From IMG/VR virus record IMGVR_UViG_3300021399_000115, positions 68,320 to 132,319 of that record: a stretch of DNA of 64,000 nt; one strand, given 5' to 3'. This document shows, in pieces, positions 37,436-55,925 of this stretch. The notes below the pieces were generated by a model, which had not been told where the DNA came from, ran no database searches, and worked only from the letters and a program-made list of their open reading frames with translations. Numbering within the stretch: position 1 is the first letter of the stretch; each line of letters starts with the position of its first letter. Made by a program: the position numbers and the translations under genes. Source of the stretch: a virus (lineage: Duplodnaviria > Caudoviricetes).

Positions 37436-37438
37436 TTT

Positions 37439-37534
37439 GCGGATAAACATAGGTACTGATCATGCCTATGGGGACATTTATCATCCGAGTGTCCTATTCC
37501 GCTGGTTTTAATAATCGGGTGGAGAAGGGATGAT
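37439..37534 (+). ncRNA. Three-way-junction element, copy 1 (loop complementary to downstream initiation region)
   Basis: Outer stem GCGGA/TCCGC; hairpins CATAGGTA/TGCCTATG and GGACATTT/GAGTGTCC; loop ATCATCC pairs with GGATGAT at 37528-37534. Confidence 0.6.
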
Positions 37535-37538
37535 GATT

Positions 37539-38063
37539 ATGAGTGAAAGAAAAATAATTGCTAAAGCTATTGATATAGAAACTGGTGAAGAATTAGCTGA
37601 TATTTATGAGGGTGATAAAATTATTTCCCCAAAAGAACCAAATGATTAGATTGAAAATTATAATGGAGATAAAAGATTCGTGAAGTTATTCGATGGTATT
37701 AGTGAACTACGTAAAGCAATAAATAATGATGGTGTATTTTCAACTGCGGTTAGTTTAGCGGATTATGTTTGTTACGATGATTGTGTAATACGTATGGGCG
37801 GACATAAAAATGGAAGAGTTATGAGCGTTCATGATTTGTCCGATGCATTAGATATTCCCTATAACACATTAAGAAAACATATTAGTGCGTTATATAAAAA
37901 TGGTGTTTTAGCGTTATGTAAAACTGGGACTAGGGGTAATCCAGATTTATTAAATGATTGTATAATTGCTAATCCTAGCGTGTATTTACGAGGAACAAAA
38001 GTTAATAAAACAGTTTTATCTATATTCGAAGAGAGTGGATGGGGTAATTATACAAAAGAATAA
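37539..38063 (+). CDS. RepL-like winged-helix DNA-binding protein; first TAG-recoded gene
   Basis: ATG 37539 (or 37530) is in frame with ORF 37680 through one TAG; HTH VHDLSDALDIPYNTLRKHISALYKNG and IANPSVYLRG. Confidence 0.7.
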
Positions 38064-38141
38064 TAAGACACTAAGAGATTTATTTGCCCTGGAAATAATT
38101 AAATTATTTAGCGATTATATGGAATTTTATATAAAAATGAG

Positions 38142-38247
38142 TTGGTCAAATTTGGTCAGCGTGGCAAAAAATGGTCAGTAAATTATTTATTAGGTTCACT
38201 GGTTTTTTGAACGTTTGCCGATTTAATCGGTTGATCAAATTTGGTCA
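38142..38247 (+). repeat. Direct repeat TTG(G/A)TCAAATTTGGTCA x2
   Basis: 38142-38158 and 38231-38247, with an extra TGGTCA near 38172. Confidence 0.7.
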
Positions 38248-38315
38248 AGCCAAATTATTATAGAAAATAGTCGTCAATTAAAGTTGATGACCGGCAAATT
38301 TAAGGAGGTGAGTTT

Positions 38316-38417
38316 ATGCGCCTAAGTGACAAAATTATTTGCAACCTTGTAGCCGTCATTGGCGGTTGGAGTATGACGGTTGCATTTTGCAACGTTGTTA
38401 AATTAATAACACATTGA
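38316..38417 (+). CDS. 33-aa hydrophobic peptide
   Basis: SD AAGGAGGTG; MRLSDKIICNLVAVIGGWSMTVAFCNVVKLITH. Confidence 0.55.
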   Translation: MRLSDKIICNLVAVIGGWSMTVAFCNVVKLITH

Positions 38418-38498
38418 TTCGTTCATGTTGGTACGCGGGAGAGTAACTATTACTCTTCTGCTTCGGGTTCGATTCCTGGGGTGAAATTTATTATTTTA

Positions 38499-38567
38499 GA
38501 GTATGTGGTGTAATGGTAGCACACTTCGCCTGGGACGAAGGGGAGACGTTCGAGTCGTACATATTCT
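38499..38567 (+). tRNA. tRNA-Pro(TGG), slightly degenerate T stem
   Basis: GAGTATG/CATATTC acceptor, D arm GTGT-AATGGTA-GCAC, anticodon arm CTTCG-CCTGGGA-CGAAG, TTCGAGT loop. Confidence 0.7.
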
Positions 38568-38622
38568 ATTTGCCAGTGATAAATATGGTAAAATCAATAT
38601 GATTAAAAGGAGGTAAAAGGTT

Positions 38623-39981
38623 TTGTCTGCAACCAGAATAGTGAAAAAAGGTTAGAAAAAGCCGGTTTCACCGAAGGAAGCCGGTAAAACTACAAACCTA
38701 AAAGAAATAGATAAGACGATTGATTAGTTATGCGAATTGTTTGATACGCTTAAACCTAGTGATTAGATAAAAGCACTCGAAGCGATGGGCGTTGGGAGTA
38801 AATTCTTTACGTGTCAGCATTGTGGTCACGTTAAAACAAAAGATAAATTCTATGTTTCTACTGCTCCCGGACAAGCATCTGGATTAACGGACGGATGTAA
38901 GCAATGTGCGGAAGAAATTGCACTGCCAGTTGTTAATGGAGAAAAATAGCAACCAACCAAACAAACGGTTGACGACGCTATGTATTTTTTAAACAAACCA
39001 ATGTTGGAAACTGTATGGGAAGCATCTCTTCTCGAAGCTGCTAACGGAGCATCTGGGAAAGGCAAAAGTAATGTTTATACTTCATATTGCAAAAATATCC
39101 AGATGGTTAATTATTATACAATGACTTATAGAGAGTCTGACAATTATACCGGTGGCGCAATGTCTCTTGAAGATATGACGGAAAATGCTTTACCAAAGGA
39201 CTAGGAAATTATTGAACAATTTGAAAAAAATAAAAATGACACTTTGCGGTTATTGGGGTATCTTCCTTTTGATAAAGAAAAGCTATCCGACTAGCCGTTT
39301 TTATATTCGTAGTTAATAGGTTTTTTAGATTCATCTGAAGAAGGCAACGATGATATGATGAGAACTGCTTCTATTATATCCATCGTTCGTGGTTTTTTAT
39401 AGGCTTCAAATATTGATGACATGGTTGCTCAGTTATCGCAAGATTTTAGGAATGCTGAAAAGAATATAGCCACTATCAAAGCCCTTCAATAGATGAAAGC
39501 GCAAATTTTGAGTAGCGTGAATAATCTTGCCAAAGAGAGCTGCATTTCTTTAAAGAACAGTAAACATTCTATCAGAGGCGAAAACACTTGGACCGGAAAA
39601 CTTAAAAAGATATAGGAATTAAATTTAAGAGATGGGCAAGTAAACGGTTTTGATATTGGAACTTGTCGAGGTATGTAGCAAGTACAAGAAATCGCCGATG
39701 CCTCTCTTATGAAGCAATTGGCTCTTGATGAGTCAGAATGGTCAGATATGGTTGCGATTATGAGAAAAACCATCCAAGAACTTCGTGAAGAATGTAATTC
39801 ATATAAAGAGATTAATAGAATACTTCTCTAGGAGAATCTTGATCTTAAAGATTATTTAGAAGAAAAAGGAATTGATATTAGTAATCAATATAGGAATTTA
39901 AGAGATCTATATTCTGTTTTTGCCAATGATGAAAACGAGGAGGACGACGAAAATGAAGACGCTGATTTCTCCAGTTTATGA
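38623..39981 (+). CDS. Zn-finger protein upstream of terminase (YonG-like; possible small terminase), TAG=Gln
   Basis: TTG start with AAGGAGG; one frame to TGA 39979-81 with about 12 in-frame TAG; CQHCG...CKQC. Confidence 0.75.
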
Positions 39982-42010
39982 TTTTGGCTATTTGGATTAT
40001 GACAAGGACTTTTATAAAGATTACGGTGTATTTGTCAAGCCAATTGATTATCCTATGTCTAGTAGAAAAATTGAGTCTTTGTTAGCAATTGCAGAAATGC
40101 AGAAGTATTATCAATGTAATCCTGTTAGATTTATTGATAATTTTTTCAATATTGAGTTATTAGATATGTAGTCGCTCGCCGTATAGAGAACATGGTTTAC
40201 TCCAAATTCTCTCCTTGTTTGTACGCGAGGTTTTGGTAAATCGACAGTAATTGATCTGGAGTTAATGTCTAAGGGGATGTTATTCAATAATTATTGGGCA
40301 TATATTGCTAGTGGGTCCGGTAGTTAGGCACAGAATACTTTCACTACTCTTGAAAAATTAGCAAATGATAATATTGATACCTTTACAGGTTCTACTGGAA
40401 AGATATTTAAGGATGAGATTGTCATTAGCAATGCGTCTGGAGATGGTTTTAGCCATTCTTCCGACGGCTTTAAATATACTTTGTATAATGGTTCTTTTTC
40501 CCAAACGTTAAATGCTAATATAGATGCACACCGTGGCTACAGAGGCACGATTGTGTTTGATGAAAGTGGATTTTTATCTGATGAATTGATGAACGTTTAT
40601 GGAGCGTTTGCTGCTGTAAATAAAAATCTTAAAACTGGTAAGGACGCTAGTGGTAAATCTATAGACCCAATTAGATAGAGATGCTTTCCACAAGGAATTG
40701 GATATCAAAAAATATATATTAGTTCCGCAAGTAGTACGGATACTGCATTCTATAGGTTATATAGAGAATTCGCGAAAAATATGATAATGGGTAATCCGGA
40801 GTATGTTGTTCTTCATATGGATTGTGAGTTGGCATTTAAACCTACAATTAGAGGAGAACTTGTTGCTCCTCTTCTATCTCGCTCAACAGTTGATTATGAA
40901 ATGAGAACAAATCCCGAAAAGGCTAGACGAGAATATTATTGTCAATTTACCACAGAGGCTGGAGCTGATGCTATTGTAAAGCGCGGAGTCATTACTCGTA
41001 ATGAAGAAACGAGAAAACCAGTTCATAGTAATGATACCGGTAATAGGAAATTTTGGATTTGTTATGATCCAGCTAGGATGAGAGATAATTCTGTAGTTTT
41101 AGTTGCTGAGCGTTACGAATCTCCACTTCCTGATGGGTCGAAGGAATATAAAGCGAGAATTGTTAATTTAGTTAATCTGTTAGACGTAGGTAAAAAAATA
41201 AAATCACCTATGCAAACACCGGATCAAGTTGAATATTTAAGACAAATGATTCTTGATTATAATGGTGGTGCTGATAATTATGATAATATTCTTGGGATTT
41301 ATATAGATGCCGGTTCTGGTGGGGGTGGTCCAATTATTGCGGATATGTTAATGCAAAACTGGGTCGATAAAGCCGGGGTTGAACACAGAGGTTTTATAGA
41401 TAAGGAATATTCTGAGGAGTACGTTAAAAGATTTCCGGACGCGGTTTAGGGAAAACTCCATATGATGAATCCAAGTGCTTATAAATCGTAGATGTACGAA
41501 GCACTTATAGAAATGTTAAATTAGAATAAAATTAGTTTTACCGCTAATTACGATCATAAAGGATATCTTACTGTTTTTGATGTTGATTAGAAAATGATTG
41601 ATGAAGAGACAAAAAAGATAACTGAAAAATTAAAGAAACAAAAGATTGTAGGGAAAGAGTTTGAAGAAAAGTTAAAAGAGGAACTTAATAAACTACAATC
41701 GGTAAAAACGAAAACTATTAAGTTGGATTGGCGAGATGAAATTGGTCTTGTTAATATAGATATATTAAAAGAAGAATTGGTAAATATGGTGAGGAAGAAG
41801 AGAGATACAGGCAAAGATTCTTTTGAATTAACACCGGAAAAGGCAAATAAAATGCACGATGATCGCGCATATACTTGCGCTTTGCTTGGATGGGCTTTGC
41901 TTCAAGAACGTAGAAGTGATATTTTGAAGAAGCCTAAAAATCAAGATCCACAATAGCTATTTTCTCAATTTACATTCCGTCAACCAAAAAAAGTAACCAG
42001 ATTTAAATAA
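39953..42010 (+). CDS. terL: Terminase large subunit (YonF-like), TAG=Gln
   Basis: Four track ORFs share one frame joined by 9 TAG; ELLDM*, TRGFGKS (Walker A), IVFDESG (Walker B), ISSAS, YDPAR, YIDAGSGGGG, HDDRAY nuclease motifs. Confidence 0.92.
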
Positions 42011-42025
42011 TAAAGGAGGTGCCGC

Positions 42026-43609
42026 ATGGCAACAAGAAAGAAAACCGCTGACCGCGGCCCCAAAAATAATGAAACTAAAATAACTACAATCCCCACGGAT
42101 GTGGAAGATTTTTCATATAAGCGTGAACGTGCGCAGACAATGACATTCGCCAAGATGGAAGAAATTCTTCAGCGTAACGCCACTAGGTCTGTAAACAGAA
42201 CTTTCACGCAATACACTAAAGACCTCGTAAAAACATATATTTAGTCGCCGGCTAACAATCAAGATACTCTTAGAGAAATTTCGAGATTCTTAGTTAGAAA
42301 TTCTATGTTGTATCAAAAAATGATTATGTATATGGCGGCGATGCCGTTGTTCTATTATACAATTACTCAAGCAAATGATTTGTCCGAAGAAATAGATGTG
42401 GATAAGGCACTTAAAGGTTATCAAAAAGTACTTGAGACTTTTGATAAATTTAGCCTAAAAAAAGACATGTATACGGCATTGTATCTTGCAATTCGTGACG
42501 GATTTTATGCTGGGTATGTTTATGAGAATAAATAGGGAAGAACTTTTTTAATGCCGTTAGACGTTCAATATTGTAGAATAGTCGGGAAAAATGAGTACGG
42601 AGAATGGGTTGTATATTTTAATGCCGCCTTTTTTGACGCCGCCAACAACAGTGAGTTTGTTCTCGGCGTTGACGGACAGGGAAGTTACGCAACCTGGGAT
42701 GAAGTATTTATCAATGGTTATCGCTTATATAAGGATGGTGGACGTGATTATCAATGGTTTAGATTGCCTCCCGAAAAATGTTGTGTTTTGTTAATTGGCC
42801 CAGAGGATGAGTTCTCGTTCCCATTACCATATTTTCTTCCGCTGTTTACGGATTTATTAGATTTGCTTGATTTGCAGCAGATTCTTCAATCTAAAACAGA
42901 ACTTGAGAATTATGCTTTGATTGTGAATAAGATACCGTTAGTGGATAATGGTAACAGTGGGGATGTTGATGATTTTGCTATCTCAATGGAGATGGTTAAT
43001 TATTTTCGACAGCTTGAGGAACAGTCAGTGCCGGATTTGGTCGGTGTTATTACTGCCCCGTTCGACATTGATAAAATTATGTTTAATGATACGTCACATG
43101 CGTCAGATACAGATGCGTTAGCGAAATCTATAAATAATCTTTTTTCCAACAGCGGACTAACACAAACAGTTGTGTCTGGCGGAAATTCTACTTCTAACTT
43201 GGCGATTAAGTTTGCACAGCTTGCAGATCAATCAAACGTTTGGGTTTGGGTAAATAGGCTTGAGTCTTGGTTAAACTTTTATATTGCGGAGAATATATCT
43301 AGGGGGTATATCTTTGAAATATTGAGAATAACCTGGTTTAATGAGGATGACTACATCCAAAGATATAAAGACTCCGCGACACTTGGCGGCCCAGCTTTGG
43401 ATTATTTGTCCGTTGTTGAGGGAACGCCATATAAAGCAATCAACAAGATTAGGTTTGAGAACGCTATTGGCATTAAGGATATGATGAAGCCACTACAATC
43501 AAGTTATAATACTTCCAGTAATACTGTTGGGAGACCTAGGTCAGATGATGATGATTTAAGCGGTAGCGCTGAAAGAAGTAGAAATACTGGTAGTACAATA
43601 GCTGAATAA
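42026..43609 (+). CDS. Portal protein (YonE-like), TAG=Gln
   Basis: Three ORFs in one frame joined by 2 TAG; 527 aa; immediately after terL. Confidence 0.8.
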
Positions 43610-43625
43610 TTATTTATGATTTTTA

Positions 43626-43660
43626 AGAGCGGGAGATTAGTCCCGCTCTATTATTTTATT
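43626..43660 (+). terminator. Rho-independent terminator
   Basis: AGAGCGGGA-GATTAG-TCCCGCTCT followed by ATTATTTTATT. Confidence 0.7.
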
Positions 43661-43696
43661 TAATGAATTTAGCGCGGTAATGCGTTAATGTTTTAT

Positions 43697-43768
43697 AGGG
43701 GCGTAGCATACCAGCTAGTGCGCGCGGCTCTAACCCGCGAGGACCGGGGACGGCACCTGGCGCCCTTG
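43697..43768 (+). tRNA. Amber suppressor tRNA (anticodon CUA), probably Gln-inserting
   Basis: Acceptor AGGGGCG/CGCCCTT + G73; D stem GCAT/GTGC; anticodon arm CGCGG-CT-CTA-AC-CCGCG (CTA 43730-43732); T stem CCGGG/CCTGG with non-canonical loop GACGGCA. Confidence 0.88.
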
Positions 43769-43772
43769 TTCA

Positions 43773-43881
43773 CACAGAATAATATAAGGAGTTGCAAACC
43801 TTATATGGAGAGATGTCCTAGCTCTCTCTTATTCTGTGATTATGATAATTAAAAAAGAATAAATAAGGAGATAAAAGGATA
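43773..43881 (+). ncRNA. Three-way-junction element, copy 2
   Basis: Outer stem CACAGAATAA/TTATTCTGTG; hairpins TATAAGG/CCTTATA and GGAGAG/CTCTCT; loop TGTCCT can pair with AGGATA at 43876-43881. Confidence 0.6.
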
Positions 43882-44106
43882 ATGAAAAATTTTTACCCAA
43901 ACACAACTGAGTGTATAGAAAAATATAACCAAATATCAGATAAGGTATTTAATGGTGATGAATCTACTACTGATGTAGAGGATGAATTTCTTCTAAATTT
44001 TTGTCTGTATCTTGCGTAGGCACTGGTTGCCGACACTGGATTCAGTGAAAAGGCTCGTGAAGAACTTACGAAAACTGCTGACATAATTAATGATGTTTGT
44101 AGGTGA
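43882..44106 (+). CDS. Small acidic hypothetical protein, one TAG
   Basis: SD AAGGAG; 74 aa when TAG is read through. Confidence 0.55.
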
Positions 44107-44110
44107 TATT

Positions 44111-44293
44111 ATGGGAAATAAACAATTTTTTATTCATACATCTGATGAGGAAACTGCTGAGAAATTGCGTCAACTTGGTTACGAAGAACTTCCGAAAGAA
44201 GGGAGTCAGTGGGTATTTATTAATAATACTAATTTGACGTTTTCCGATGATGACGGTATGAAGTTAAATTTTACGAATAAAATAACATTTTGA
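44111..44293 (+). CDS. Small hypothetical protein
   Basis: FIHTSDEETAEKLRQLGY; SD AGGTG. Confidence 0.6.
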   Translation: MGNKQFFIHTSDEETAEKLRQLGYEELPKEGSQWVFINNTNLTFSDDDGMKLNFTNKITF

Positions 44294-44340
44294 TACTCTC
44301 CTATTCTTTGGAGAGAAATTCTAAAAAGAAAGGAGGAAGT

Positions 44341-46050
44341 ATGTTGAAGAAGAAAATTCTGACATTAGAGAATTTAATTGAATTTTGTGAATAGCAGAAT
44401 TTTAATTCTTTTGATTCGAAAGAGACCGGGTATCAGCTAAGTGTACAAGTACCGGCGGTATTTGATAAGGAAGATTCAGAAGATGATTCTTTGTTAATTG
44501 GTACGGTTAAGCTGATGCATTGCGGACGCAACAAAAACCGGTCAAATTTAACAGAAGAAGGTTTGAAGAATAGCGCTTCTACTGTTGCGTATAAACCGAT
44601 TCTTGCAAATTTTACAGATGTAAACGGAGAATTGGATTTTACTTCTCACGATTTTGAGTTTAATGATGATGGTTCTATTACATACTATGAAAAACAAGTG
44701 GGATGCTTTACCGCAGATAAACCTTATATTGAATAGGATTCTGAACATGAAGACAGAAAATATTTGTTTGCGAAATGCGCAATTCCGAGAAACTACACTG
44801 CTGCTGCCGATATAATTGAACGTAAGGGCGGGACAAAACTTTCCGCTGAATTGGGCGTCAATAAGATGTCTTATGATTCAAAGGAGAAGGAGCTTGTCCT
44901 TGAAGATGTGGTTGTGTTAGGTGCCACATTACTCGGAGTAGATCCCGTTTCCGGAGAAGAAATTGGTGAAGGCATGGAGGGCGCCAGATTAGATATTGCT
45001 GATTTTAGCGCCGAAAATAATTCTGTTATGTTTAATAAGGCAGAATTGATTGATGAGATTACGCAAGCTGTTATGAATAAGCTTGATAATCATATAAATA
45101 ACGACCAAAGAAAGGAGGAACATGGTTTGGAATTTGATGAAAACAAAGCAGATGAGACTATTGAGGAAGAAAACATCGAATTGAATGAAACCATTGATGA
45201 GGAAACTCAGGTTACCGAGACAGAAGCTTCTGAAAAAGTGGATGAAGAAGTTACCGAAGAAACTCCCGAAGTGGTTGATGAATTTGATGGAGAAGATGAT
45301 TCGGATGGCGAAGGCACTTCTGATGACGAAGACACCACCGACGATTCTGAGGAAGAAGAACCGGAAGACGCCGTAACTGATGACGGTGTTCTAAACAATG
45401 GTCAGCAGAAGGAATATAGTATTAACAAAACTGTGTCTTTTAACGGTGAAGTAAAGACGTTCTCTTCTACTCTGATGGAGAAACTTAACGCACTTTATGA
45501 GCTTGTGAATTCCACTTACGGAGAAAGCGATAATGCCTGGTATGACGTGGACGCACTGGAAGATGAGAAAATCGTGTATATGCATGATTATTGGAATGGG
45601 AAACATTACCGTCAGTCTTATCAAGTAAAGAAGGATGTTTATTCCTTAAAGGGTGACCGCACGGAGGTGTTCTGCACGTATTTAAGCAAGGACGAACAGG
45701 CACAGCTTGAGTCTATGAAGAGTAATTATTCTGATATTTCTGATAAACTTGCTAAATATGAATCTGAACCCGAGAAGGTTGAAGTTCTTAATTCCGCAGA
45801 TTATACAAGTATTGCCGGTACTCAGGAATTTGAAGACCTTAAGAAACGTGAGAATTATTTTAATCTTACGGTTGATGAGGTCAAAGATAAGGCTGACGCA
45901 ATTCTGCTTCAGTATGCAAAGGCCGGTAAGTTAAATTTTGCGGCAGATACTTCCGAGAAGAAAGAAGAACCGAAGAAAGATTTCTTTGCATTCGCAAAGG
46001 TAGAACATAACAGTTCGTTTTTAGATGGACTTCTTAATTCTAGGAAATAA
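44341..46050 (+). CDS. Prohead protease/scaffold (YonD-like), TAG=Gln
   Basis: ATG with AGGAGG; 2 TAG; MHCGRNKN, DFTSHD, KLSAEL, GATLLG...GMEGA then a long acidic scaffold-like region. Confidence 0.8.
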
Positions 46051-46294: not shown

Positions 46295-47488
46295 ATGGCT
46301 AGGTTATCACAAGAAGATTTTGAGGAAAAGTTTTATAATATTTTTGACAGGGACGAATGGGCAGTAATTGGTAAGTACGTTAACAATAATACTAATATAA
46401 AAATATTGCATAAACCATGCGGGACCGTTGTTGAACGAACATGGGCTAGTTTGCAAAGAAAAACTTGTAATTGCCCAGTATGTCATTCCAGTAAAAACAC
46501 AAAAACAGTTGTTAAATGGGTCAATGATATTGCCACTACAAATCTTGCGCTATTTTCTTTATTACTTAATAAGGAAGATGGGTATAACTATAGAGAACAT
46601 AGTAATCAGTATGCGTGGTTTGTATGCCCAAAGTGTGGAAAACATCACTACAAGATAATAAATAACGTGGCAAAGCAAGGATTATCATGCGAGTGTTGTT
46701 CTGAAAATATATCGTATGCGGAAAAGTTTTTTATCTGTTTACTTAAACAGTTAAATATTGATTACGTATATCAGTATACACCCGACTGGATTAAACCGTT
46801 GAGATATGATTTTTATTTTTGTTTAAATTCCAATCAGTATATTGTGGAACTAGACGGAGGATTGGGACACGGGTTTGGTAGTTTTAATCCTAGTGATTTT
46901 GATGATTGTGTTGAAAGAGATAATATTAAGAACGAACAGGCTAAATTACATAATCATATATTAATTAGGATTGATTGTAATTATAACATAGTCGGAAACC
47001 GCTATCAATATATCAAAGATAATATAGTAAAACAGTGTGGTGACATACTGGATTTAAATAAGGTTGATTTTGGTGAATGTAATAGAATTGCTCTTCTCAA
47101 AAATTGTGAGTATATTTCTGAATTATGGAATTCTGGAATACAAGGCTATCAAAACTTACAAAATTATATACCTGTTGGTCGCGCCACAATCAGAGATTAT
47201 TTAAAAAACGCATCTGAGATTGGATTAATTTCTGAATCTTATGATGAAATATTAAAAATTAATAGGATTTATAGCAATAAGAGACTTCAAAAATCTAAAG
47301 GTAAAGCTGTGATGTGCAATGAGACCGGTGAGATTTTTGCAAGTATATCTGAGGCGTCTAGGCAATATAAAAAATATCATGCTTCAAGTTTGCTTAATTA
47401 TTTTATTAAAAATCGAAAATATTGCGGAACACTTCCAGATGGAACCTGTTTAACCTGGCGACTAATTGAAGACAAAAGCGCTAGTTGA
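46295..47488 (+). CDS. Free-standing homing-endonuclease-like protein (Zn-ribbon + PD-(D/E)xK/Vsr-like + NUMOD1-like)
   Basis: HKPCG..CPVC, WFVCPKCG..CECC, RYDFY...VELDGGLGH...D..K...LIRID, C-terminal VMCNETGEIFASISEA; AT-rich; no TAG. Confidence 0.75.
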   Translation: MARLSQEDFEEKFYNIFDRDEWAVIGKYVNNNTNIKILHKPCGTVVERTWASLQRKTCNCPVCHSSKNTKTVVKWVNDIATTNLALFSLLLNKEDGYNYREHSNQYAWFVCPKCGKHHYKIINNVAKQGLSCECCSENISYAEKFFICLLKQLNIDYVYQYTPDWIKPLRYDFYFCLNSNQYIVELDGGLGHGFGSFNPSDFDDCVERDNIKNEQAKLHNHILIRIDCNYNIVGNRYQYIKDNIVKQCGDILDLNKVDFGECNRIALLKNCEYISELWNSGIQGYQNLQNYIPVGRATIRDYLKNASEIGLISESYDEILKINRIYSNKRLQKSKGKAVMCNETGEIFASISEASRQYKKYHASSLLNYFIKNRKYCGTLPDGTCLTWRLIEDKSAS

Positions 47489-47555
47489 TAATAGAGGGTT
47501 AAACCTCTTATCATTTTGATATTTATATTTATTAAGAAAGGAGAAAAAGATAATT

Positions 47556-48164
47556 ATGGCTATTTTTAGTAATTTAACTGAACTTGCCGGCGGTACTCAT
47601 GGGATTTTCGAATCCTCCCTGCTCAAAAGTACAATTTCCGGACACCTCTGGGATTGCCTTGTAGTAACCGAGACCGGCACCGGTGCAAACATCACAAGAA
47701 CACCTATCAACGTAGATAATGCCGTTGCGGTGAAAGTTGGGGACTTCACTCATAATGATAAAGGTCTCCAGGAGCGTTATGCGACAATCGCCGGTGTTAA
47801 GGATAAAGTCGGAATCGTTGGTTCTCCCGCACTTATTAAAGATGCGAGAAGCCAGTATGAAGCATCCGAGGGATTCTTCTACAATAAAGCTGGACAGGAC
47901 TCTAAGGTTTATGAGGTAGTTGGCGACAAATATGATGGAGACATTTTTGGAGTATCTCTCAACATGTTTACCGAAGCTTCTCAGACTAATGTAAGAGAGG
48001 ACGCATATGTTGTTCTTGATGGAACAGGAAAATATGTTGCTCAGGCAGCCGCTCCGACAATGGCAAACTTTGGTTTTGTTGGTCGTGTTCATAGCATTTA
48101 TACAAACAATGATTATACTCTTGTTCGTATTTATGTGATTCAGAACGTGGATAATAATAACTAA
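47556..48164 (+). CDS. Capsid-associated/decoration protein (YonC-like)
   Basis: Position just upstream of the major capsid gene; strong SD. Confidence 0.6.
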   Translation: MAIFSNLTELAGGTHGIFESSLLKSTISGHLWDCLVVTETGTGANITRTPINVDNAVAVKVGDFTHNDKGLQERYATIAGVKDKVGIVGSPALIKDARSQYEASEGFFYNKAGQDSKVYEVVGDKYDGDIFGVSLNMFTEASQTNVREDAYVVLDGTGKYVAQAAAPTMANFGFVGRVHSIYTNNDYTLVRIYVIQNVDNNN

Positions 48165-48189
48165 TGGTAAGGAAGAGAGGTGAAAAGAA

Positions 48190-49293
48190 ATGAAAGATAT
48201 TACATGCTTTAGCAATAATGTTGTTGCAAAATTTGATAATAACTATGAGAATATGCTTCAGTTCAACGATCTTATGATGGACGCCACAAATGGTGTTTAT
48301 GAAAAATATTCTAAGGCTCAGACTTCTGAGATTATTCGTAACTAGTTTAATAAGATTCTTGGTATTGACTTTAAGAATGCCAAACGTATGGAGCGTAGAC
48401 AGGCTTGGAGAGCACATGGCATTGAGATCTGTTCTGTAATCGAAAATGTCCTTGCTGACAAGATGGTTTCCGGCTGGGATTCTACGAATGCTCGTTTTAT
48501 GAACTATGTAGAGGATGTTAATATTGCTCGCGGTGATATGAATTATTTCACAGCTAATAATACTGCTCTTCTTCAGGTTAGCAAATGGGCTGGCAATCAC
48601 CATGACATAGTACGTCAGAAAGTCCTTCCGGGAAAAGGATTCTCGATTGATACTTATCCGTATGTAATTAAAGTTTATACTGATTTTGAGATGTTTATGC
48701 TTGGCAAGGTTGATTTCTCCGAAATGGTAGACCTTATGTATAGAAGCATCGAAAAACATCGTTATTCTGCGCTTTATACTGCATTCATGAGCCTTGACTC
48801 TTATCTTCCGGCTGATATGAAAGCTAGTATTGCAATTACTGAGGCTACTAAAGATTCTATCATTGATAAAATTGAGGCAGTTAAAGCTACAACCGGTAAG
48901 GATGTTATGCTTGTAGGTACTCGTGTTGCAATGCAGAAACTTCAGAATACCGTGAATTACAAAATGTGGAGTAATGATATGAAACAGGAACTCCATGAAA
49001 AAGGTATGCTTGGAATGTGGGAAGGCTATGATTGTCTTGTTCTTGACAGAGTAAATGAGGAAGGCACTCGTACCTCTATCTTTACCGCTAATGATAATAA
49101 GAAGATTTTCATCGTTCCGATTGATGACTCTTTCAAACCGATTAAGAGAGTTAATGAGGGCGACGTAGAATACTTCGAACGTGGAATGGACGGCTCTCTT
49201 CAGGATCGTACAATTGAAGCTGAGATCTGGTACTACGAGGGAATCGGCGTTGTTATTGATGAGCTGTTTGGTGTGATTATTGATAACGCTTGA
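48190..49293 (+). CDS. Major capsid protein (YonB-like), TAG=Gln
   Basis: ATG 48190 with GAGGTG SD, one TAG (IIRN*FNK), 367 aa; position after protease and decoration genes. Confidence 0.75.
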
Positions 49294-49325
49294 TTTTTTC
49301 TTAATGGATTAAAAGGAGTATTGAG

Positions 49326-50003
49326 ATGATTGTAAATGAATTATCTAAAGAGCTGGGAGTGAAGAATAAGGAGTTAATTGATTTCTTAAAAAGCAAAGGT
49401 TATAAAATTTCTAGTCATATGCAGTCTGTTGACGAAGCTATGATTAAAGACGCTAGGGATAATTTTGCGAAACCTGTTTCAAAGACTCCTACTGCTACTG
49501 TTGCGAAAACTACTGCTTCTACAAAGCAGCGAAAAACAGTACCTCCCAAAGTTGTAAAGAAATTTGCACCTGATGACTTGATCCCATGTAGAAGTATTGT
49601 CCCATGGTATCTTGAAACCGTAGGTCTTGATAAGATGACGACATATAAATGGCCTCATTTTGGAGACATCGAATATGTTGCTTATAGAGATCTTCAGTCA
49701 TGGCGTAGAAAACCGGTAATTATGGATGCTATGATTATGATTGAAGACCCGGATATTTGTGACCAGTGGAAACATGATATTGGAAATGTTTATCAGAAAT
49801 ATTTAGGTGTAGATTACCCAGAAGAGTTTTTCGAAAAATCAGACGAGGAGTTTGAAAAGATGTTAAACGAATCTTCGGATACGTTTAAATCTGTTATTGA
49901 ATATACCGCAATGGATATGATTCGTAATGAAAACTATCCGTCTTTGCAGAAACTCGTCATTATTGATAATATTCTGGGCACCGGAATTAAAGAGTTTATC
50001 TGA
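49326..50003 (+). CDS. YonA-position protein with N-terminal IF2_N-like domain
   Basis: VNELSKELGVKNKELIDFLKSKGYKISSHMQSVDE resembles the IF-2 N-terminal repeat. Confidence 0.7.
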   Translation: MIVNELSKELGVKNKELIDFLKSKGYKISSHMQSVDEAMIKDARDNFAKPVSKTPTATVAKTTASTKQRKTVPPKVVKKFAPDDLIPCRSIVPWYLETVGLDKMTTYKWPHFGDIEYVAYRDLQSWRRKPVIMDAMIMIEDPDICDQWKHDIGNVYQKYLGVDYPEEFFEKSDEEFEKMLNESSDTFKSVIEYTAMDMIRNENYPSLQKLVIIDNILGTGIKEFI

Positions 50004-50018
50004 TAAAGGAGGTATCCC

Positions 50019-50483
50019 ATGACCTCTGAATTTGATGAAATATATTCTCGCTTTTACCTGCGCGTAAAAGATTACGAGACATCGGGATTAGAAGAAAAAT
50101 TAGTAAAGCAAATGTTACTCGGCTACTTGAAGTCTACGCTATCCAAACCAATGGTGCGTAGGCTTTTTTAGTCGGTAACGCTGGATGAAGATATAGAAGA
50201 GATAGAATACGAATTGCGGAATTCTCTGGACGAGGATTCTGATAAAGATTTTGTGGAGGAAGTATTGGCTTTGGGGATGGTTGAACGGTGGCTAGATCCC
50301 AAATATCATTCTACGCTGTTGACATCACAATTAATATCGAACAGCGAATAGAAGTTCTATGCATAGTCAACTCAAATGAACGAGCTTCATACTATGTACA
50401 CCAAAGCCCAAACTGATCTTCGAAAGCTTATCCGAGATTATGGATATAGTTTATCTGTTATCAATGGGGTTGATACCGTATGA
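50019..50483 (+). CDS. Putative head-tail adaptor, TAG=Gln
   Basis: Absent from the track; AAGGAGG SD; 154 aa with 3 TAG (..SE*KFYA*STQM..). Confidence 0.7.
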
Positions 50484-50812
50484 AAACTCGGTATGGCGAC
50501 TACTCTTCTGCTCAGATTCATTCTACTAAAATTTCTTTGCGTAAGGCAATTTTCTTCCTGTTGCTTTATGTGGATCCGAATACTAAGGAAGAATATCCCA
50601 ATATTGATGTTGTGGAGGCATTCCATAGCTTACAATATAAATTAAATGGTTTAAATGGTATTTTGTGCGAACCGCCGGAACTGGTGCTTACAATGAGCAT
50701 ACTTGAGTCGGCGAAATCCGAGTACCTAAGTGAAAGTTTTGATTTTAAAAATTACCGGAAGCTTATCCTAGATGCCGGTGCGGAGATTATGAAAATAAAG
50801 GAAGGTGATTGA
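50480..50812 (+). CDS. Hypothetical virion-region protein
   Basis: 110-aa ORF overlapping the previous stop (ATGA). Confidence 0.7.
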   Translation: MKTRYGDYSSAQIHSTKISLRKAIFFLLLYVDPNTKEEYPNIDVVEAFHSLQYKLNGLNGILCEPPELVLTMSILESAKSEYLSESFDFKNYRKLILDAGAEIMKIKEGD

Positions 50813-50813
50813 T

Positions 50814-53526
50814 ATGATTACCTACAGAGATTTTCAGGCAATGCACAATAATATTAGTGTACCGGGGAGGGCGAGGAAGTAGCAAAGTGATAGTGTGGTA
50901 CTTGGGTCATGGTGGCAAGATATATAGGCATAGTATTGCTATATCTATGACTACTATCATGATTTAAAATCTGACGAGCCATTAAAATTGGATGATTTAC
51001 ATCCTGAGAGTGATTCTCAAAAAACACCGCTTCCTATTAAATTTATTCGTCACACGAAGCAAACATACGATAAAGATAGCGTGACCTTTTGGTTACAAAT
51101 GTAGCCTGGATAGGAATGTAATCTTGATTATTATGATGCGGTATTAGGTAATCGTTACGACAGCCTTTTCCCAATCGGCTGCTTCGCGGATATAATGTAG
51201 GAAGATGGGAAATACTATAAATGGCTTGTAGTGGATAAAGCTAATTACAATGGGAATCAATTCCCAACATTTGAAATATTAAGATGTGATAAAGTTTTTC
51301 AATGGATTTATGATGGGCATCGGTATTAGTGTGCCGGTGTACTTAGAAGTCAGAATTCGTATGTATGTGCGCTTCATAAGGGAAACCTTATGTCGAAAGT
51401 TTTCTAATTGCGAGAAGTTCCTTAGAGTCAATAATCTACAGCAAATGATTGAAATATATTAATTTGCGAAAGCATAAAAAATATTGAATTGGATAACTCG
51501 CAGCGAAGTCTTGATGAGAGAAACGTTCAACGATCAAGTCCTCAAGTGAGGTAATGGAAACCACCTAAGTTGAAAGATATGGTGTTGATATGATCTGCTC
51601 TTATGTGAAAGTATAAGAAAAATGACTAATACAGGTAAAAAACAGGACAGGGATTGGCCTCCTTTCTTAGTACTCCTAATGCTAAGATTACTGTTTTTTA
51701 TATAGATTAATAATTATTCTTAGGAGGGATAATATGGGTAAATTATTTACATATAAAGATTTTTCAGAATCTCAAAAATTAGATATTGTCAATATGTATA
51801 AAGACGGTAAATCAACTGTTTATATTGGAGAAAAATATAATGTTGGACACAAAGTAATTGCAAGAGTATTAGATTTATATAATATTCCTAGAGTGGGAAA
51901 TGGATAGAGAAAATATTCAATAGACGAAAAATATTTTGATATTATTGATACTCCTAATAAAGCATATATTTTGGGTTTCTTATACGCCGATGGGTCTAAT
52001 TATACTCCAAAACAAACAGTTAGTATATCATTAGAAGAACATGATAAATATATTCTTGAAAGAATGAGGGAGGAATTAAAATATGAAAAGCCTCTTGATT
52101 TCCTTGATTATAGTAAAAAACATGACTTCGGATATAATTATGCAAATCAATATAGATTAAGTATTTTTAGCAAACATATAAGCGATGTTTTATCCGAGAA
52201 AGGTGTTGTGCAAAGTAAAAGTTTAATATTAGAATTTCCCAATTGTGTTCCAGAAAATTTATTAAAATTCTTCATCTTGGGGTATTATGACGGTGATGGG
52301 TCTTTCTGTCCACATTACACTAAAATCGGAAAATTCTAGCCGTTAGTTACTTTTACTTCCACGGAGAATTTCTGTATAGATTTACAGAAATATCTACAAA
52401 AAGAATTACAAATTCCTTGTGGAAATATATATGATGCCTCATGTCATAATGGAATTACAAAAGTATTGTCTTTTAGTGGTGCAAAGCAAGTAAAAACATT
52501 TTTAGATTGGCTTTACACCGATGCTGATATGTATCTAAAAAGAAAATATGAAAAGTATTGTAATAATTTTGAAGATGTAGTCATTCCCTTATCTGTTTAA
52601 CGAACTGATAAGGTAACATTCAGAACAACTCTGGCTTGTGGCTAAGGAAATTTGGCCACGTTAAACGCCCGAAATTGCGGGGAACCCCTTAGAGCTTTAA
52701 TGACCAAGTATATTTAGGAATAAGTATATGGCAATCAGTAACAGGATTGGTATGGTAACACTATTAGAGATTGGGCAATCAAACGCAGCGAAGCTTCCAG
52801 AACGGAAGAACGTTCAACGACTGTAATGGGCGGCATTATTGCATGGTACAGTCTAATCCCATTTTTTAAATATTACGAAAGTAAGGGTATATATGTGATT
52901 TCAAAATCCAATCCGTGGAAGATTAGCAAAAATTTGCTGTCCCAATGACTAGAGAAACGGAAACATTATTTTATAATATTCGAATGCTGATAGACTCAAA
53001 GGTTGAGTCGGAGCCGCGGGCATGGCTCATATCTAAAGTGAATCGCATATCCCCAAACGGAATATGTAGAGTTACTTTAACATAGGATAATTTTGATTAG
53101 CATAAAGACTACGTGGAGAAAGACGACAATGGAAATATTGTCGGAATGTGGGCTAATTACTTTACAAGTAACGTTGAACCGAAACCAATTCCAGTAGATG
53201 ACATTATCCCATCTCCCACTACAATTGCTACAATTACATGCTCCGGGAAACAGCAGATTCGTATAGGCGGCTCTGCCAAAACATTCACCGTGGTATTTGC
53301 CGACGAAGACGGTACGTCGATAGATGCACTTCCCGGTACTTGGGATTTTTCTATAGATGGGAATTCCGTTCCGCAAGAATTGCTGACGTTATCTGCAACA
53401 GATAATCATGTTAAGGTTAAGTTCTTGGGAGACGATTCGTATATCGGCAAAATACTTACTGTAACCTATAAAGTTGATGGCGAAGATATAATCGCTTCGC
53501 TGCCAATTGAAATCATTGCGTTGTAA
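50814..53526 (+). CDS. Virion (head-closure-like) protein split by two group I introns: exon 1 50814-51362, exon 2 52624-52643, exon 3 52896-53526; TAG=Gln
   Basis: Joined reading ...GVLRSQNSY|NNSGLWL|DFKIQSVED**KFAVPM-type continuity (ED-TAG-CAA-K) in frame with ORF 53113; many in-frame TAG. The exon 1/2 junction is uncertain by 1-2 nt. Confidence 0.75.
51636..51726 (+). ncRNA. Three-way-junction element, copy 3 (inside intron 1)
   Basis: Outer stem TAAAAAACAG/CTGTTTTTTA; hairpins AGGGA/TCCTT and TCTTAGTA/TGCTAAGA; loop CTCCTAA pairs with TTAGGAG at 51720-51726. Confidence 0.65.
51734..52600 (+). CDS. LAGLIDADG homing endonuclease, TAG=Gln
   Basis: KAYILGFLYADG and FILGYYDGDG motifs; N-terminal HTH; 288 aa through 2 TAG. 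Confidence 0.88.
52644..52895 (+). mobile_element. Group I intron 2 (ORF-less, 252 nt)
   Basis: P1 GTGGCT|AAG-GAAA-TTTGGCCAC with U-G at the splice site; P AATTGCGGGGAA, Q AAACGCAGC, R GTTCAACGACTG, S GTACAGTCT; terminal G at 52895; P10 GAAATT/GATTTC. Confidence 0.9.
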
Positions 53527-53539
53527 GGAGGTATGAGTT

Positions 53540-54106
53540 ATGGAATTAACAACTGAACAACTTCAGGAACTTCGTGCCTATAAATCTACAATGGATGATA
53601 ACAATATACGTTTTAAAGAAATTATTAAAAAAACTCTCATAGATGATCCTTTGATTATTTATTTATTAAACAACAAGGAACTTGAGGATGAGAATGCAGA
53701 CCCAAGCGATTATTTAGATGTTAATATACTTCCGTACTATATGATTCATCCTACTCAGCACAATGTTTAGAATTTTATTTGTTATGAGGTGCAATTTAAA
53801 GAAACGCCTAGATATAATGACAGCCTTATGTATGTAGATATTATTTTCTATATACTTTGTGAAGAAAAGAACGGTACTGAAAAACTTACCGGTATTGCTC
53901 GCCACGATTTAATTGCTGCCAGAATAAAACATTTATTTAATTGGACAAATAAATTTGGAACACAATGTCATGTGCTATCAGATTTACCGTCTGTCACGGA
54001 TAATGACTATGCTACTCGCACTATAACATTCGAAATGGTTATGGGCAAAGATATTGTTAAAACCAAAGATAATGTTTCGCGCGTGGTAAATAAAATAGGT
54101 GGTTAA
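53540..54106 (+). CDS. Putative tail-completion protein, TAG=Gln
   Basis: Two ORFs in one frame joined by a TAG; position in the neck/tail module. Confidence 0.65.
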
Positions 54107-54107
54107 T

Positions 54108-54902
54108 ATGAGTGAGTTCAAGTTCAATCCTCTAAAGATGTACTTTGGACTACCGTATGAAGTCGGTAATGGCATGACACTGCATATCCCAACAATTGGA
54201 GATATTCTCTATTTGCCGGATGCTGACATTACGTTTTACGGCTCATTAAACATATGGGTTAGTAATCCAACGACATATCGGCTTCAACTTTGGAATGCTG
54301 GGATTGATTGGAACAAAATAACAGATTATCAGTTATTCCTTATGTTATATAAAGGTCAAACTCCTGAGGTTACAAAATTATTGTTTGGAGACATAGACTG
54401 GGGAAAATTCGACTTATATGCCAAAAATGTTTAGCAAGAGGACGAAAACGGCAATCTGGTTGATTCATAGGTAGTAACGCTTTATGATGCTGCGGATGAT
54501 ATAGAAATTAGCGAAGAGGATTATACTACAATTTCAGAGTATTATCGCACTGCTTTCAACATTCATCCTAAGGTTGAAAAAGCCAAAGGTAAAGCGACAA
54601 AGGAGGCAATCATTTGGGAGGATGAGCAGAATTTGGCTCGTCAAAAAAAAGATGGGGACGCTCCTACTTCCGCGCTGTTGCCGTTAGTTTCTGCATGCAT
54701 TAATCACCCAGGCTTTAAGTACAACCTTGAGTAGCTTAAGGATATTAATTATGTTGTGTTTATGGATTCTGTGCAGCGTTTACAAATCTATGAAAATACA
54801 CGGGCGTTATTAGCCGGTAGTATGAGTGGATTTGCGGATATGTCTAAAGTTCCGAAGGAATCATTTAATTTTATGAGAGATTTAAATAGTGATAATAAAT
54901 AA
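54108..54902 (+). CDS. Conserved tail-region protein (YomV-like position), TAG=Gln
   Basis: Frame continues through 3 TAG to TAA 54900-02; HIPTIGDI...INHPGFKY...FMDSVQRLQ. Confidence 0.7.
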
Positions 54903-54972
54903 CTTGGTATAACCCGAAATAATCGGTTAATACAATAAATATAAAAATATATTATGAAAGGAGAAATGTATT

Positions 54973-55785
54973 ATGGCATTCAAGCTCGATGATCTTATTA
55001 TTGACCGTATCTAGGTCGCAACTGCTGAAGACTTTGACGGCAACGTTCTCTATACACTCACCCAGCTTTAGGAAGCTACTCTTAATATTTCCGCAGAATC
55101 TAATGATGTTACCGATAAAGACGGCAACCTCGTGAAACGTTTCTGGAGAGCAAAAACCGGTGAGTTTACAGCAACTAACGCTTTTATTAACCTTAATATT
55201 CTCGGATCTGAAGCTGGTTCTGGAAAGGTTGAAGCTAGTGCAAACCATAAGATTACCGCACCGGGAATCACAATTGCTAAGGCATCTGATGGCCCGACCG
55301 TTACACTTAAGTATGTAACCGGTACGCCGAAGGTGTATGGTATGGAAAACAACGGTACTCTCGGTATTGCATTCCAGACCGGCGGTAGTGCTACTGCTTC
55401 CACATTTACTTATGATGATGGAACCGGTGTACTTACTCTTCCGCTTAGCAACGATTATACTCAGTATCTGATTCGTTATGACCGTGAACTTGATGGCACC
55501 GCTGCAACGGCTGGTGCTGTTGAGATGATTAATAAAGCTGATAAGTTCCCGGGAACTATCCGTCTTATCCTTAAGGTTCTTTGTGTCGATCCTTGTTCCG
55601 CAGACACACTCCGCGCAGCATATATCGACATTCCGTCCTTCTAGGTATCGCCGGAAAGCGAAGTGTCACTGAGTTCCGACAATCAGACTATCGACTTTAA
55701 TGGACAGCTTCAGGTTTCTTATTGCGACGCTGATAAGAGACTCTATAGCATCTATGTTGTTGAAGATGACGAGGAAGACGAATAA
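54973..55785 (+). CDS. Probable major tail protein, TAG=Gln
   Basis: MAFKLDDLIIDRI*...; 270 aa through 3 TAG; strong SD, T/A/G-rich, followed by a terminator. Confidence 0.7.
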
Positions 55786-55809
55786 TTTATTATCGTTTAA
55801 CTATCAAGA

Positions 55810-55840
55810 GCCGTCGGGGTCAAATCCGGCGGTTTTATTT
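55810..55840 (+). terminator. Rho-independent terminator
   Basis: GCCGTCGG...CCGGCGGT followed by TTTATTT. Confidence 0.65.
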
Positions 55841-55841
55841 A

Positions 55842-55925
55842 AAAATAAATAGGTTGGTTTTGCAACCCAACTGACAAGAGCGGGAAACTCCTATCCCGCT
55901 CTTTTATTTTGTCTAAATTTAGGAG
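55842..55925 (+). ncRNA. Three-way-junction element, copy 4
   Basis: Outer stem AAAATAAA/TTTATTTT; hairpins GGTTGG/CCAACT and GAGCGGGA/TCCCGCTC; loop CTCCTA pairs with TAGGAG at 55920-55925. Confidence 0.6.

Follow-up and report, generated by a model that had tools for sequence, protein, structure and literature searches.

Three-way-junction RNAs next to phage tRNAs and group I introns often carry a loop complementary to the ribosome-binding region of the following gene

The last 64 kb of one virus contig of 132,319 base pairs (bp), IMG/VR record IMGVR_UViG_3300021399_000115 (Caudoviricetes), is referred to here as the window (64,000 nucleotides, nt) and contains four sites on the plus strand where an outer stem encloses two hairpins to form a three-way junction. 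The four sites are short (62 to 75 nt) and occupy the untranslated stretch that separates a highly structured RNA gene, either a transfer RNA (tRNA) or the core of a group I intron, from the open reading frame (ORF) that follows, which is usually a homing endonuclease gene; behind elements of this kind, in the window and in other uncultured phages, the ORFs named by Pfam encode LAGLIDADG, HNH, and GIY-YIG homing endonucleases. The fold and the complementarity between the loop of the second hairpin (loop 2) and the ribosome-binding site (RBS) are under selection. The reading we prefer, to which we assign a probability of about 0.6, is a cis-acting pseudoknot between loop 2 and the RBS that limits translation of the nuclease. 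It is the position of the matched stretch, together with precedent from T-even phages, that suggests that such pairing may form in the cell and lower initiation.

The original prediction, made from the letters of the window alone, described four copies of one RNA. All four sites were found where it had placed them, as were the pairs of loop and downstream motif (37480-37486/37528-37534 at site 1; 43814-43819/43876-43881, with one G-U, at site 2; 51673-51679/51720-51726 at site 3; and 55888-55893/55920-55925 at site 4). The minimum free energy (MFE) fold is a three-way junction in 12 of the 13 elements tested, with z scores of -2.3 to -6.2 against dinucleotide shuffles; the predicted outer stem around two hairpins is the MFE fold at sites 1 to 3 and only marginal at site 4. 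The expression "four copies of one RNA" holds for the architecture and, as judged by sequence comparison, is not shown for descent: when the sites were compared with the complete genome of 132 kb by short-word BLAST, no sequence paralogy appeared, a terminator stem (43626-43649 and 55877-55902) alone being common, and the covariance model of one type of element misses the other. There are at least two such sequence types, which may be related or convergent. We define type A by a match to model R1 or R2, a start a few nt past a tRNA 3′ end, and covarying stems, and type B by a match to model R3 with conserved junction bases and an invariant G-U pair at the base of hairpin 1. Relatives are designated by locus, L002 and L039 being two loci of the sister phage G001 and L016 a locus of phage G002.

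As a measure of complementarity, loop 2 was compared with the 60 nt that follow the element and the longest uninterrupted Watson-Crick match was scored, with p values obtained from shuffled loops. The match is 7 nt at site 1 (p = 0.027 by length and 0.002 by energy) and at its orthologue (p = 0.023), 7 nt at site 3 (p = 0.022), 9 nt at L013 (p = 0.005), 8 nt at a junction behind tRNA-Thr in G002 (p = 0.009), 6 nt at L007 (p = 0.022), and a marginal 6 nt at site 4 (p = 0.109 by length and 0.016 by energy). In a set of nine independent elements, each loop matched its own downstream region better than permuted ones (energy, p = 0.0025; length, p = 0.006). When the comparison was made for 17 elements that have distinct loops and are followed by an ORF, the matched bases of the true pairs totaled 111 vs 75.3 ± 3.8 for permuted pairs; this sum was reached in 0 of 20,000 permutations, and the own partner ranks first in 14 of the 17. 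In the full set of 27 elements, type B loci included, a match of at least 6 nt is present in 17 of 20 that have an ORF of at least 150 amino acids (aa) within 60 nt and in 1 of the 7 others (Fisher p = 0.0017), and the loop of that single element matches the start codon of an ORF 64 nt away. Unrelated junction-shaped loci in three phage genomes do not reach 6 nt (0 of 11; maximum, 5 nt).

The position of the match is also informative. In 11 of 12 type B elements followed by an ORF, the matched stretch ends 1 to 12 nt before the start codon, which is the Shine-Dalgarno position. Site 3 and its orthologues in G001 and G002 carry three different loop 2 sequences, each of which matches its own RBS flank. 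On the basis of the permutations and the orthologues, the predicted co-variation of loop and initiation region stands as element specific, except that site 2 is not above chance by length.

Covariation within the stems was to be sought in homologues as a check on the original prediction, and it is found in both types. Relatives of type A were drawn from IMG/VR and metagenomes by a portal-based search. Model R1, seeded with site 2 and two relatives, found copies in L016 (the same as the L020 copy), L007, and L001 and also matched the G001 orthologue of site 1 (E = 7e-4); R2, the seed of which includes that orthologue, scores site 1 at 51.3 bits. Sites 1 and 2 belong to type A as defined, and site 3 (R2, E = 2.1) and site 4 (12.2 bits, E = 1.2) fall outside it. 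In an alignment of seven sequences, few of them independent, 88.6% of 166 pair cells are paired vs 40 to 61% with slid partners, and changes on both sides occur in 15 of 24 pairs, a count as high in 0 of 500 shuffles. Sites 1 and 2 are conserved blocks in G001 (L002), where the preceding tRNAs and the ORF after site 1 are strongly diverged, and the fold of the site 1 orthologue (L002 4861-4925) is preserved across an indel.

Members linked to a called tRNA start 2 to 6 nt past its end. The tRNA before the type A copies is an amber suppressor in the window, L002, L013, L016, L007, and L001 and tRNA-Met at site 1, and the G002 junction mentioned above lies 4 nt past tRNA-Thr and is strong (-32.5 kcal/mol, z = -6.17). 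Among 22 tRNAs called by ARAGORN in three phages, 6 are followed by a junction-shaped fold, which is strong and within 4 nt in only 3. L006 has the suppressor tRNA as in the window, and the junction is missing; the short, different spacer behind this tRNA (L006 2206-2350), in which only the first bases of the site 2 outer stem remain, is a natural deletion or replacement variant. Hairpin pattern scans of IMG/VR with sites 1 and 2 returned only the sister phage G001, a degenerate pattern adding L019 and L020. Two pattern scans of genome contigs gave 0 and 10 matches, and the 10 were rejected as chance hairpins because hairpin 1 alone aligned. The portal-based IMG/VR locus search with alignment gave one extra locus, which lacks the element, and a possible second structure behind the suppressor-linked junction of G002 has a z score of -0.01. 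The suppressor tRNA itself carries an insert of about 200 to 230 nt in its anticodon loop in L002 (12108-12425), L013 (6988-7275), and L016 (4247-4531), and in L013 a search of 551 nt with the model for group I introns gave a match to this insert (34.4 bits; E = 4e-7).

Type B is represented in the window by site 3, the orthologues of which in G001 and G002 have the same junction fold, with stems that differ and junction bases that are conserved. A scan of IMG/VR for two junction motifs gave at least 107 loci; of 111 pattern matches listed, 33 fold as a junction, and five distinct folded matches were dismissed as a coding-sequence artefact. Model R3, built from site 3 and its closest relative, was run over 1.0 Mb of fetched loci and at E ≤ 0.1 gave 26 matches, which represent 18 distinct sequences, and none on sites 1, 2, and 4. 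In the alignment of the 18, 97.8% of 370 cells are paired vs 41 to 60% when slid, and 16 of 21 pairs show changes on both sides, again with 0 of 500 shuffles as high. The G-U pair at the base of hairpin 1 is invariant (18 of 18 sequences), which makes sense only in RNA of that strand. RNAalifold on a MAFFT alignment of type B yielded the outer stem only, with the hairpins misaligned, and this alignment was replaced by the model-based one.

At least eight type B copies closely follow a group I core: those of the window, G001, and G002 and, by eye, those of L068, L112, L124, L146, and, twice, L159. At L159 an exon is followed by the core, the junction, and the LAGLIDADG gene, and about 150 nt then separate this gene from the next exon. 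The L156 copy lies 3 nt past tRNA-Leu in a tRNA array, and the copies of L102, L123, and L136 are away from any tRNA or intron. A 13-nt motif that makes up site 3 hairpin 1 (window 51649) recurs with up to two mismatches at three intergenic places in G002 (L016 4641, 5520, and 13473), one of which is outside any junction. At L145, where no endonuclease gene lies behind the type B junction, a "drum" RNA (RF02958, 44.3 bits; 4328-4424) precedes the junction by about 280 nt.

The prediction that the element travels with mobile genes is borne out by the LAGLIDADG, HNH, and GIY-YIG ORFs behind it. In the type A loci L013, L007, and L001, HNH/DUF4379 genes of the kind that follows site 4 lie behind the junction, between it and a homologue of the 74- to 75-aa gene that follows site 2 in the window. 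Ten proteins encoded behind type B were tested against Pfam: six match LAGLIDADG_3 above the cut-off, one is GIY-YIG with NUMOD1, one matches HNH_3 just below the cut-off, one matches DUF723/DUF7487, and one matches nothing. Relative to G001, the window has site 4 and its HNH gene (approximately 55846-57214) in place of about 112 nt; by this sequence comparison, the two are a single insertion or deletion. In G001, an ORF after tRNA-Pro (L002 6025-6198), the start of which looks in translation like a GIY-YIG endonuclease, is separated from the tRNA by only an ordinary terminator-like hairpin, with no three-way junction, so that the element does not precede every such gene in these phages.

It can be hypothesized that a nuclease gene located within an intron or downstream of a tRNA with strong transcription would need a brake. 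The loop of hairpin 2 would pair with the Shine-Dalgarno or start-codon region 10 to 45 nt downstream, the resulting pseudoknot would compete with the 30S subunit, and translation of the nuclease would stay low on abundant tRNA or intron transcripts. When targets for loop 2 in trans were sought in the genome, 7- to 10-mers were found in coding sequence only and without a pattern.

Several results weigh against this pseudoknot as the whole explanation. The loop 2 match is 4 nt at site 2 (p = 0.50 by length and 0.045 by energy), 4 nt and at chance level at its orthologue (p = 0.72), 4 to 5 nt and not above chance at the suppressor-linked junction of G002 (p = 0.79), and a weak 5 nt at L001 (p = 0.21); L145 and L152 have a following ORF and no match, the ORF of L145 looking like a Clp protease in translation. 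For the newly found type B loci alone, the table of ORF and complementarity reads 9/2 vs 1/3 (p = 0.077). Elements and loops were partly selected with the hypothesis in mind, loop boundaries were defined by the analyst, and two of the originally predicted sites had been picked for complementarity. Pair counts come from alignments fitted to the models, which favors structure; the MFE folds of the individual sequences agree with them independently. Two boxes are present both at sites 1 and 4 and in the HNH loci linked to a tRNA: one some 10 nt past the junction, which is the better match to loop 2, and a second, which is taken as the working ribosome site. In these HNH loci the better-matching box lies 19 to 31 nt upstream of the start, and the second, weaker one is the real Shine-Dalgarno site, so that a simple picture of a loop covering the RBS is incomplete. 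Pairing over 6 to 9 nt is also sterically demanding for loops of 7 to 11 nt. Moreover, junctions without an endonuclease gene, namely, site 2 and six type B copies, keep their structure, which implies a role beyond RBS hiding, now or in the past.

Such an additional role might involve the loop of hairpin 1 (loop 1). In 10 of the 13 elements compared, this loop contains a perfect palindrome of at least 6 nt, a feature not mentioned in the original prediction, and five palindrome sequences are represented; of the other elements, two have a 4-nt G/C palindrome and in one the palindrome is broken by a single change. A 6-nt palindrome is found in loop 2 in 0 of 13. Single-case shuffle p values for loop 1 are only 0.05 to 0.19 and the copies are related, so that the strength of the observation comes from palindromes that differ at orthologous places (site 1 vs G001; site 3 vs G001 and G002). 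Several type A loops 1 consist of 9 nt, with two bases, the 6-nt palindrome, and a final A, and within type B, copies with an endonuclease gene behind them have palindromes more often than the rest, according to a reading of the table of elements. Retroviral dimerization-initiation hairpins form kissing loops through a 6-nt palindrome flanked by purines. Loop 1 resembles them as a short loop with a palindrome of 6 nt, and the most obvious lead is dimerization through kissing loops. Unlike in those hairpins, several palindromes here are A/U only and one orthologue is broken.

Other explanations have to be weighed against a pseudoknot that limits nuclease translation. It is possible, if rather unlikely, that the junction is in essence an RNA processing, insulating, or stabilizing module at the boundary between tRNA (or intron core) and message, to which the loop/RBS match is a secondary adaptation; it might serve as a nuclease cleavage site, as a shield for the 5′ end of the new message, or as a block on mispairing of the tRNA or ribozyme with downstream sequence. 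A module of this kind would fit the spacing of 2 to 6 nt past the tRNA (Met and suppressor in the window; L002, L013, L016, L007, and L001; tRNA-Thr of G002; tRNA-Leu of L156), the type B copies (at least eight) close behind a group I core, the fold that is kept without an endonuclease gene and without a loop/RBS match, and the theta ribozymes, which are found in the same place and for which processing of tRNA trailers is proposed in the available text of PMC10879173. It would, however, leave the element-specific covariation of loop and RBS unexplained. No known cleavage motif or ribozyme model fits, L006 has its suppressor tRNA without a junction, the other tRNAs of the three phages lack a comparable one (strong within 4 nt in 3 of 22), and type B also occurs away from tRNA and intron (L102, L123, and L136). 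RBS masking and a processing or insulating function are compatible roles and not exclusive ones. It may be speculated, although we regard this as doubtful, that both are joined in a portable "insulator-switch" that would let homing endonuclease genes settle behind essential structured RNAs: loop 1 would form kissing contacts, the RBS would be released by transcript concentration or by processing of the tRNA or intron, and a position behind a suppressor tRNA would tie the timing of the downstream gene to the code switch.

That unrelated structures have been seen as one pattern, site 4 being a terminator pair and the matches a generic likeness between pyrimidine loops and purine-rich RBSs, is very unlikely and is already largely refuted for sites 1 to 3. 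At site 4, hairpin 2 is indeed the top terminator-like match and has its stem in common with the portal gene terminator, and the outer stem is absent from the MFE fold; the type A model gives only E = 1.2 for site 4 and E = 2.1 for site 3, there is no sequence paralogy, and site 2 has a match no better than chance. Two independent families show covariation, which argues against this reading, as do the superiority of own over permuted loop/RBS pairs (0 of 20,000), the background junctions (0 of 11 at 6 nt), and the site 3 orthologues, in which loop and RBS flank change together. At least as improbable is an element that acts as DNA, either as a binding or cutting site for a dimeric protein or as homology arms kept uniform by endonuclease-driven gene conversion. 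The palindromes of loop 1 (10 of 13, vs 0 of 13 for loop 2) would suit it, and hairpin 1 of L013 is nearly identical to that of the window despite portal proteins that are 60% identical, which fits co-conversion; G-U pairs are nevertheless tolerated, the one invariant in 18 of 18 type B sequences being a mismatch in duplex DNA and on the other strand, the stem sequences change with pairing kept, unlike in a protein site, and one copy differs from another in its palindrome. It is barely credible that the element is a small self-cleaving ribozyme of a new kind, acting on the tRNA trailer in the manner proposed for theta ribozymes. The genomic niche is that of theta ribozymes, and a match to the hepatitis delta virus (HDV) ribozyme family is found elsewhere in the window (21095-21165, minus strand). 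The type A junctions, on the other hand, lack a conserved core and leave only 0 to 2 bases unpaired. HDV-like ribozymes cleave themselves with a catalytic cytosine in J4/2 and form a nested double pseudoknot, in which the 5′ strand of P1 starts at the cleavage site and the 3′ strand lies between the P3 and P4 hairpins. Here the two hairpins are only 0 to 1 nt apart in type A and at site 3, so that a P1 strand has no room between them and this pseudoknot cannot be drawn. A hammerhead has conserved catalytic bases in the unpaired strands of its junction; the junction strands here, at 0 to 4 nt, do not correspond to it, and Rfam hammerhead models give no match. No ribozyme family matches at E ≤ 5 to 10, HDV-family models included (E ≤ 5 at the sites and E ≤ 10 for the L013 copy). 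Three further candidates were rejected: a tRNA-like mimic, for lack of T-loop or CCA features; a relative of phi29 pRNA, for lack of an Rfam match; and a riboswitch, type A having no pocket-forming junction.

Pseudoknots of riboswitches and leaders, such as the SAM-II and preQ1 types, hide the Shine-Dalgarno sequence by pairing with a loop or tail and thereby block initiation. The likeness to the elements described here lies in the pairing of a loop with the RBS; unlike in those types, there is no evident ligand pocket, the type A junction is nearly without unpaired bases, and no Rfam riboswitch matches. A closer parallel may be drawn with T-even phages, in which I-TevI, I-TevII, I-TevIII, segB, and mobE are described as repressed by RNA structures that sequester the RBS (PMC2988022, available text). 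According to the same text, the genes concerned are both intron-borne and free-standing, segB lying in a tRNA cluster; masking of the RBS on long early transcripts is rationalized as protecting intron folding, by keeping ribosomes out, and as limiting the nuclease; and the RBS lies inside a simple local hairpin, from which it is freed by a late promoter within the hairpin (PMC2988022). In both systems, a cis-acting RNA structure precedes intron-borne or free-standing endonuclease genes. The elements differ from the T-even hairpins in that the RBS lies 10 to 45 nt outside the junction and is matched by loop 2 only, which places them outside that class, and in that one architecture spans three nuclease families and many uncultured phages. 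A scan for sigma-70-type promoters gave 86 sites vs 78 ± 7.7 in shuffles, with a consensus that may not be the phage's own type; among the matches listed, which are the stronger ones, none lies between a junction and its RBS.

Theta ribozymes, which are minimal HDV-like ribozymes, adjoin tRNA-Met, tRNA-Sup, and tRNA-Leu in recoded gut phages, as reported in the available text of PMC10879173. The resemblance is one of position, right behind phage tRNAs and notably behind Met and amber-suppressor tRNAs, in a gut phage with TAG recoded; unlike theta ribozymes, the elements are plain three-way junctions without catalytic-core features, and type B is also found without a tRNA. In agreement with the original prediction, which could name no Rfam family, Rfam 15 gave no match for the four sites at the gathering score, nor at E ≤ 5 over 37000-57000, and there was likewise none for the L013 copy at E ≤ 10 or for 14 type B loci at the gathering score. 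The motif was not found described in a full-text search of the literature, and one of the types may already be included in the supplements of PMC10690425, a catalogue, according to its available text, of 8,495 structured RNA candidates drawn from IMG/VR.

Site 1 (37439-37502; MFE, -24.6 kcal/mol; z = -3.70) is a distant member of type A. Its outer stem (37439-37443/37498-37502) begins 2 nt past the end of a tRNA-Met with anticodon CAT (37363-37436, plus strand; called by ARAGORN, 52.7 bits with the Rfam tRNA model), and site 2 begins 3 nt past the end of a suppressor tRNA (43769 to 43773), just as the original reading had it for two copies close behind tRNA 3′ ends. Hairpin 1 of site 1 (37448-37470) has a 6-nt palindrome in loop 1 (37456-37462), and hairpin 2 (37471-37495) carries loop 2 (37480-37486), to which two stretches are complementary, 37515-37521 with one G-U and 37528-37534, the latter overlapping the start codon at 37530. 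The gene that follows (37530-38063, plus strand) encodes a 177-aa protein with one in-frame TAG. It had been thought to be RepL-like, which was not supported: the helix-turn-helix signal is weak, with HTH_20 at 21 bits and Rrf2 at 19.9 bits, both under the Pfam cut-offs. The predicted LAGLIDADG and HNH genes behind sites 3 and 4 were recovered, the latter as HNH/DUF4379.

The suppressor tRNA before site 2 (43696-43769, plus strand; anticodon CTA) has an atypical T-loop; ARAGORN calls it only at a lowered threshold (-ps95) and misses it by default, and the Rfam tRNA model is silent at E ≤ 5. Site 2 itself (43773-43838; MFE, -23.4 kcal/mol; z = -4.60; R1, 96.2 bits) consists of an outer stem (43773-43781/43830-43838), hairpin 1 (43782-43806; loop 1, 43790-43798, with a 6-nt palindrome), and hairpin 2 (43807-43829; loop 2, 43814-43822), and the 74- to 75-aa ORF lies directly after it (43882-44106, plus strand).

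Site 3 (51635-51701; MFE, -18.2 kcal/mol; z = -2.61; R3, 99.3 bits as a seed member) follows a group I intron core (51348-51617, plus strand; RF00028, 62.1 bits). Its outer stem (51635-51645/51691-51701) has conserved junction bases on both sides and encloses hairpin 1 (51649-51664; loop 1, 51654-51659) and hairpin 2 (51665-51687; loop 2, 51673-51679). Loop 2 is complementary to 51720-51726, a stretch that coincides in part with the Shine-Dalgarno region and lies 7 nt ahead of the start codon of a 288-aa LAGLIDADG homing endonuclease gene with two in-frame TAG (51734-52600, plus strand), the product of which matches LAGLIDADG_3 at 24.8 bits (cut-off, 22.5) and phrog_4645 (E = 7.7e-51). A weak second group I-like match (52634-52911, plus strand; RF00028, 27.1 bits, E = 0.0023, below the gathering score) lies between this gene and the downstream exon, so that matches of 62 and 27 bits flank the endonuclease gene in the window. 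In G001 (L039, minus strand), cores at 1847-2078 and 1538-1815 (33 and 80.6 bits) are in tandem upstream of the LAGLIDADG gene. The host gene (50805-51347 and approximately 52912-53526) is strongly diverged between the window and G001 around the intron.

Site 4 (55842-55910) is the least certain member. Its MFE fold consists of the two hairpins only (z = -4.64; -23.5 kcal/mol vs -21.8 kcal/mol for the junction with its outer stem), and the outer stem is an A/U stem of 7 bp (55842-55848/55904-55910). Loop 1 (55858-55866) of hairpin 1 (55852-55872) holds a 6-nt palindrome identical to that of site 2, and hairpin 2 (55876-55903; loop 2, 55886-55893) also reads as an intrinsic terminator, being the top-scoring terminator-like hairpin of the region. 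Two Shine-Dalgarno-like boxes follow, one complementary to loop 2 (55920-55925) and one that is likely the working box (55935-55940). The gene behind them (55943-57217, plus strand; no in-frame TAG), for which the second ATG at 55949 is the more likely start, encodes an HNH-type homing endonuclease with a DUF4379 zinc finger (Pfam DUF4379, 60.7 bits; PHROG HNH families).

The contig has a G+C content of 38%, and from about 37.5 kb of the window onward, among the late genes, ORFs are intact only with TAG as a sense codon: the frame at 38623-39981 contains 12 in-frame TAG and the portal gene (42026-43609) contains 2. A tRNA-Pro is called by ARAGORN at 38497-38569. Megablast of 37000-45000 and 50000-58000 against GenBank phages gave no match, and parts of 37300-44300 are present as contigs in 20 public runs, one of which is an RNA run (share, 0.05). 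In a comparison of four DNA runs with 37400-57300, none of the differences listed falls within the four sites. A strict descriptor scan of the plus strand of the 132-kb genome returned four junction loci only, namely, sites 2, 3, and 4 and one in coding sequence; site 1 escaped it with an outer stem of 5 pairs.

Some further features of the window may be recorded. The HDV-family match at 21095-21165 is to the HDV ribozyme of F. prausnitzii (RF02682; 46.2 bits vs a gathering score of 44). At 21931-22067 (minus strand), 137 nt match positions 2115-2256 of the bacterial 23S ribosomal RNA model at 65.8 bits, and judging from this alignment the stretch may have been captured as a fragment or may imitate the binding site of a ribosomal protein. 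The terminator-like hairpins at 43626-43649 and 55877-55902 have the same 8-bp stem, and a G001 hairpin behind the portal gene (L002, approximately 12030-12055) has this stem with the loop inverted, as if a palindromic hairpin had flipped. A G/C-rich hairpin with a T-loop-like loop stands after a virion structural gene both in the window (55811-55833) and in G001 (approximately 151760-151790), with a T-run behind it only in the window, and could be a tRNA remnant or a terminator.

In conclusion, RBS masking of homing endonuclease genes has been known from a few T-even cases, each with its own hairpin, and the present elements point to a recurrent, modular RNA architecture that would serve this purpose and is common to LAGLIDADG, HNH, and GIY-YIG genes. 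This architecture, which is not in Rfam, is found in introns, in tRNA clusters, and behind suppressor tRNAs in many uncultured phages, and with it the tRNA trailers of phages that switch their code have a further class of structured RNA in addition to the theta ribozymes. It may be of use as a searchable marker for endonuclease cassettes and their remnants and as a compact natural translation throttle with a programmable pair of loop and RBS. That loop 1 is often palindromic, and that some copies persist where there is no nuclease gene, suggests that its function extends beyond RBS masking.

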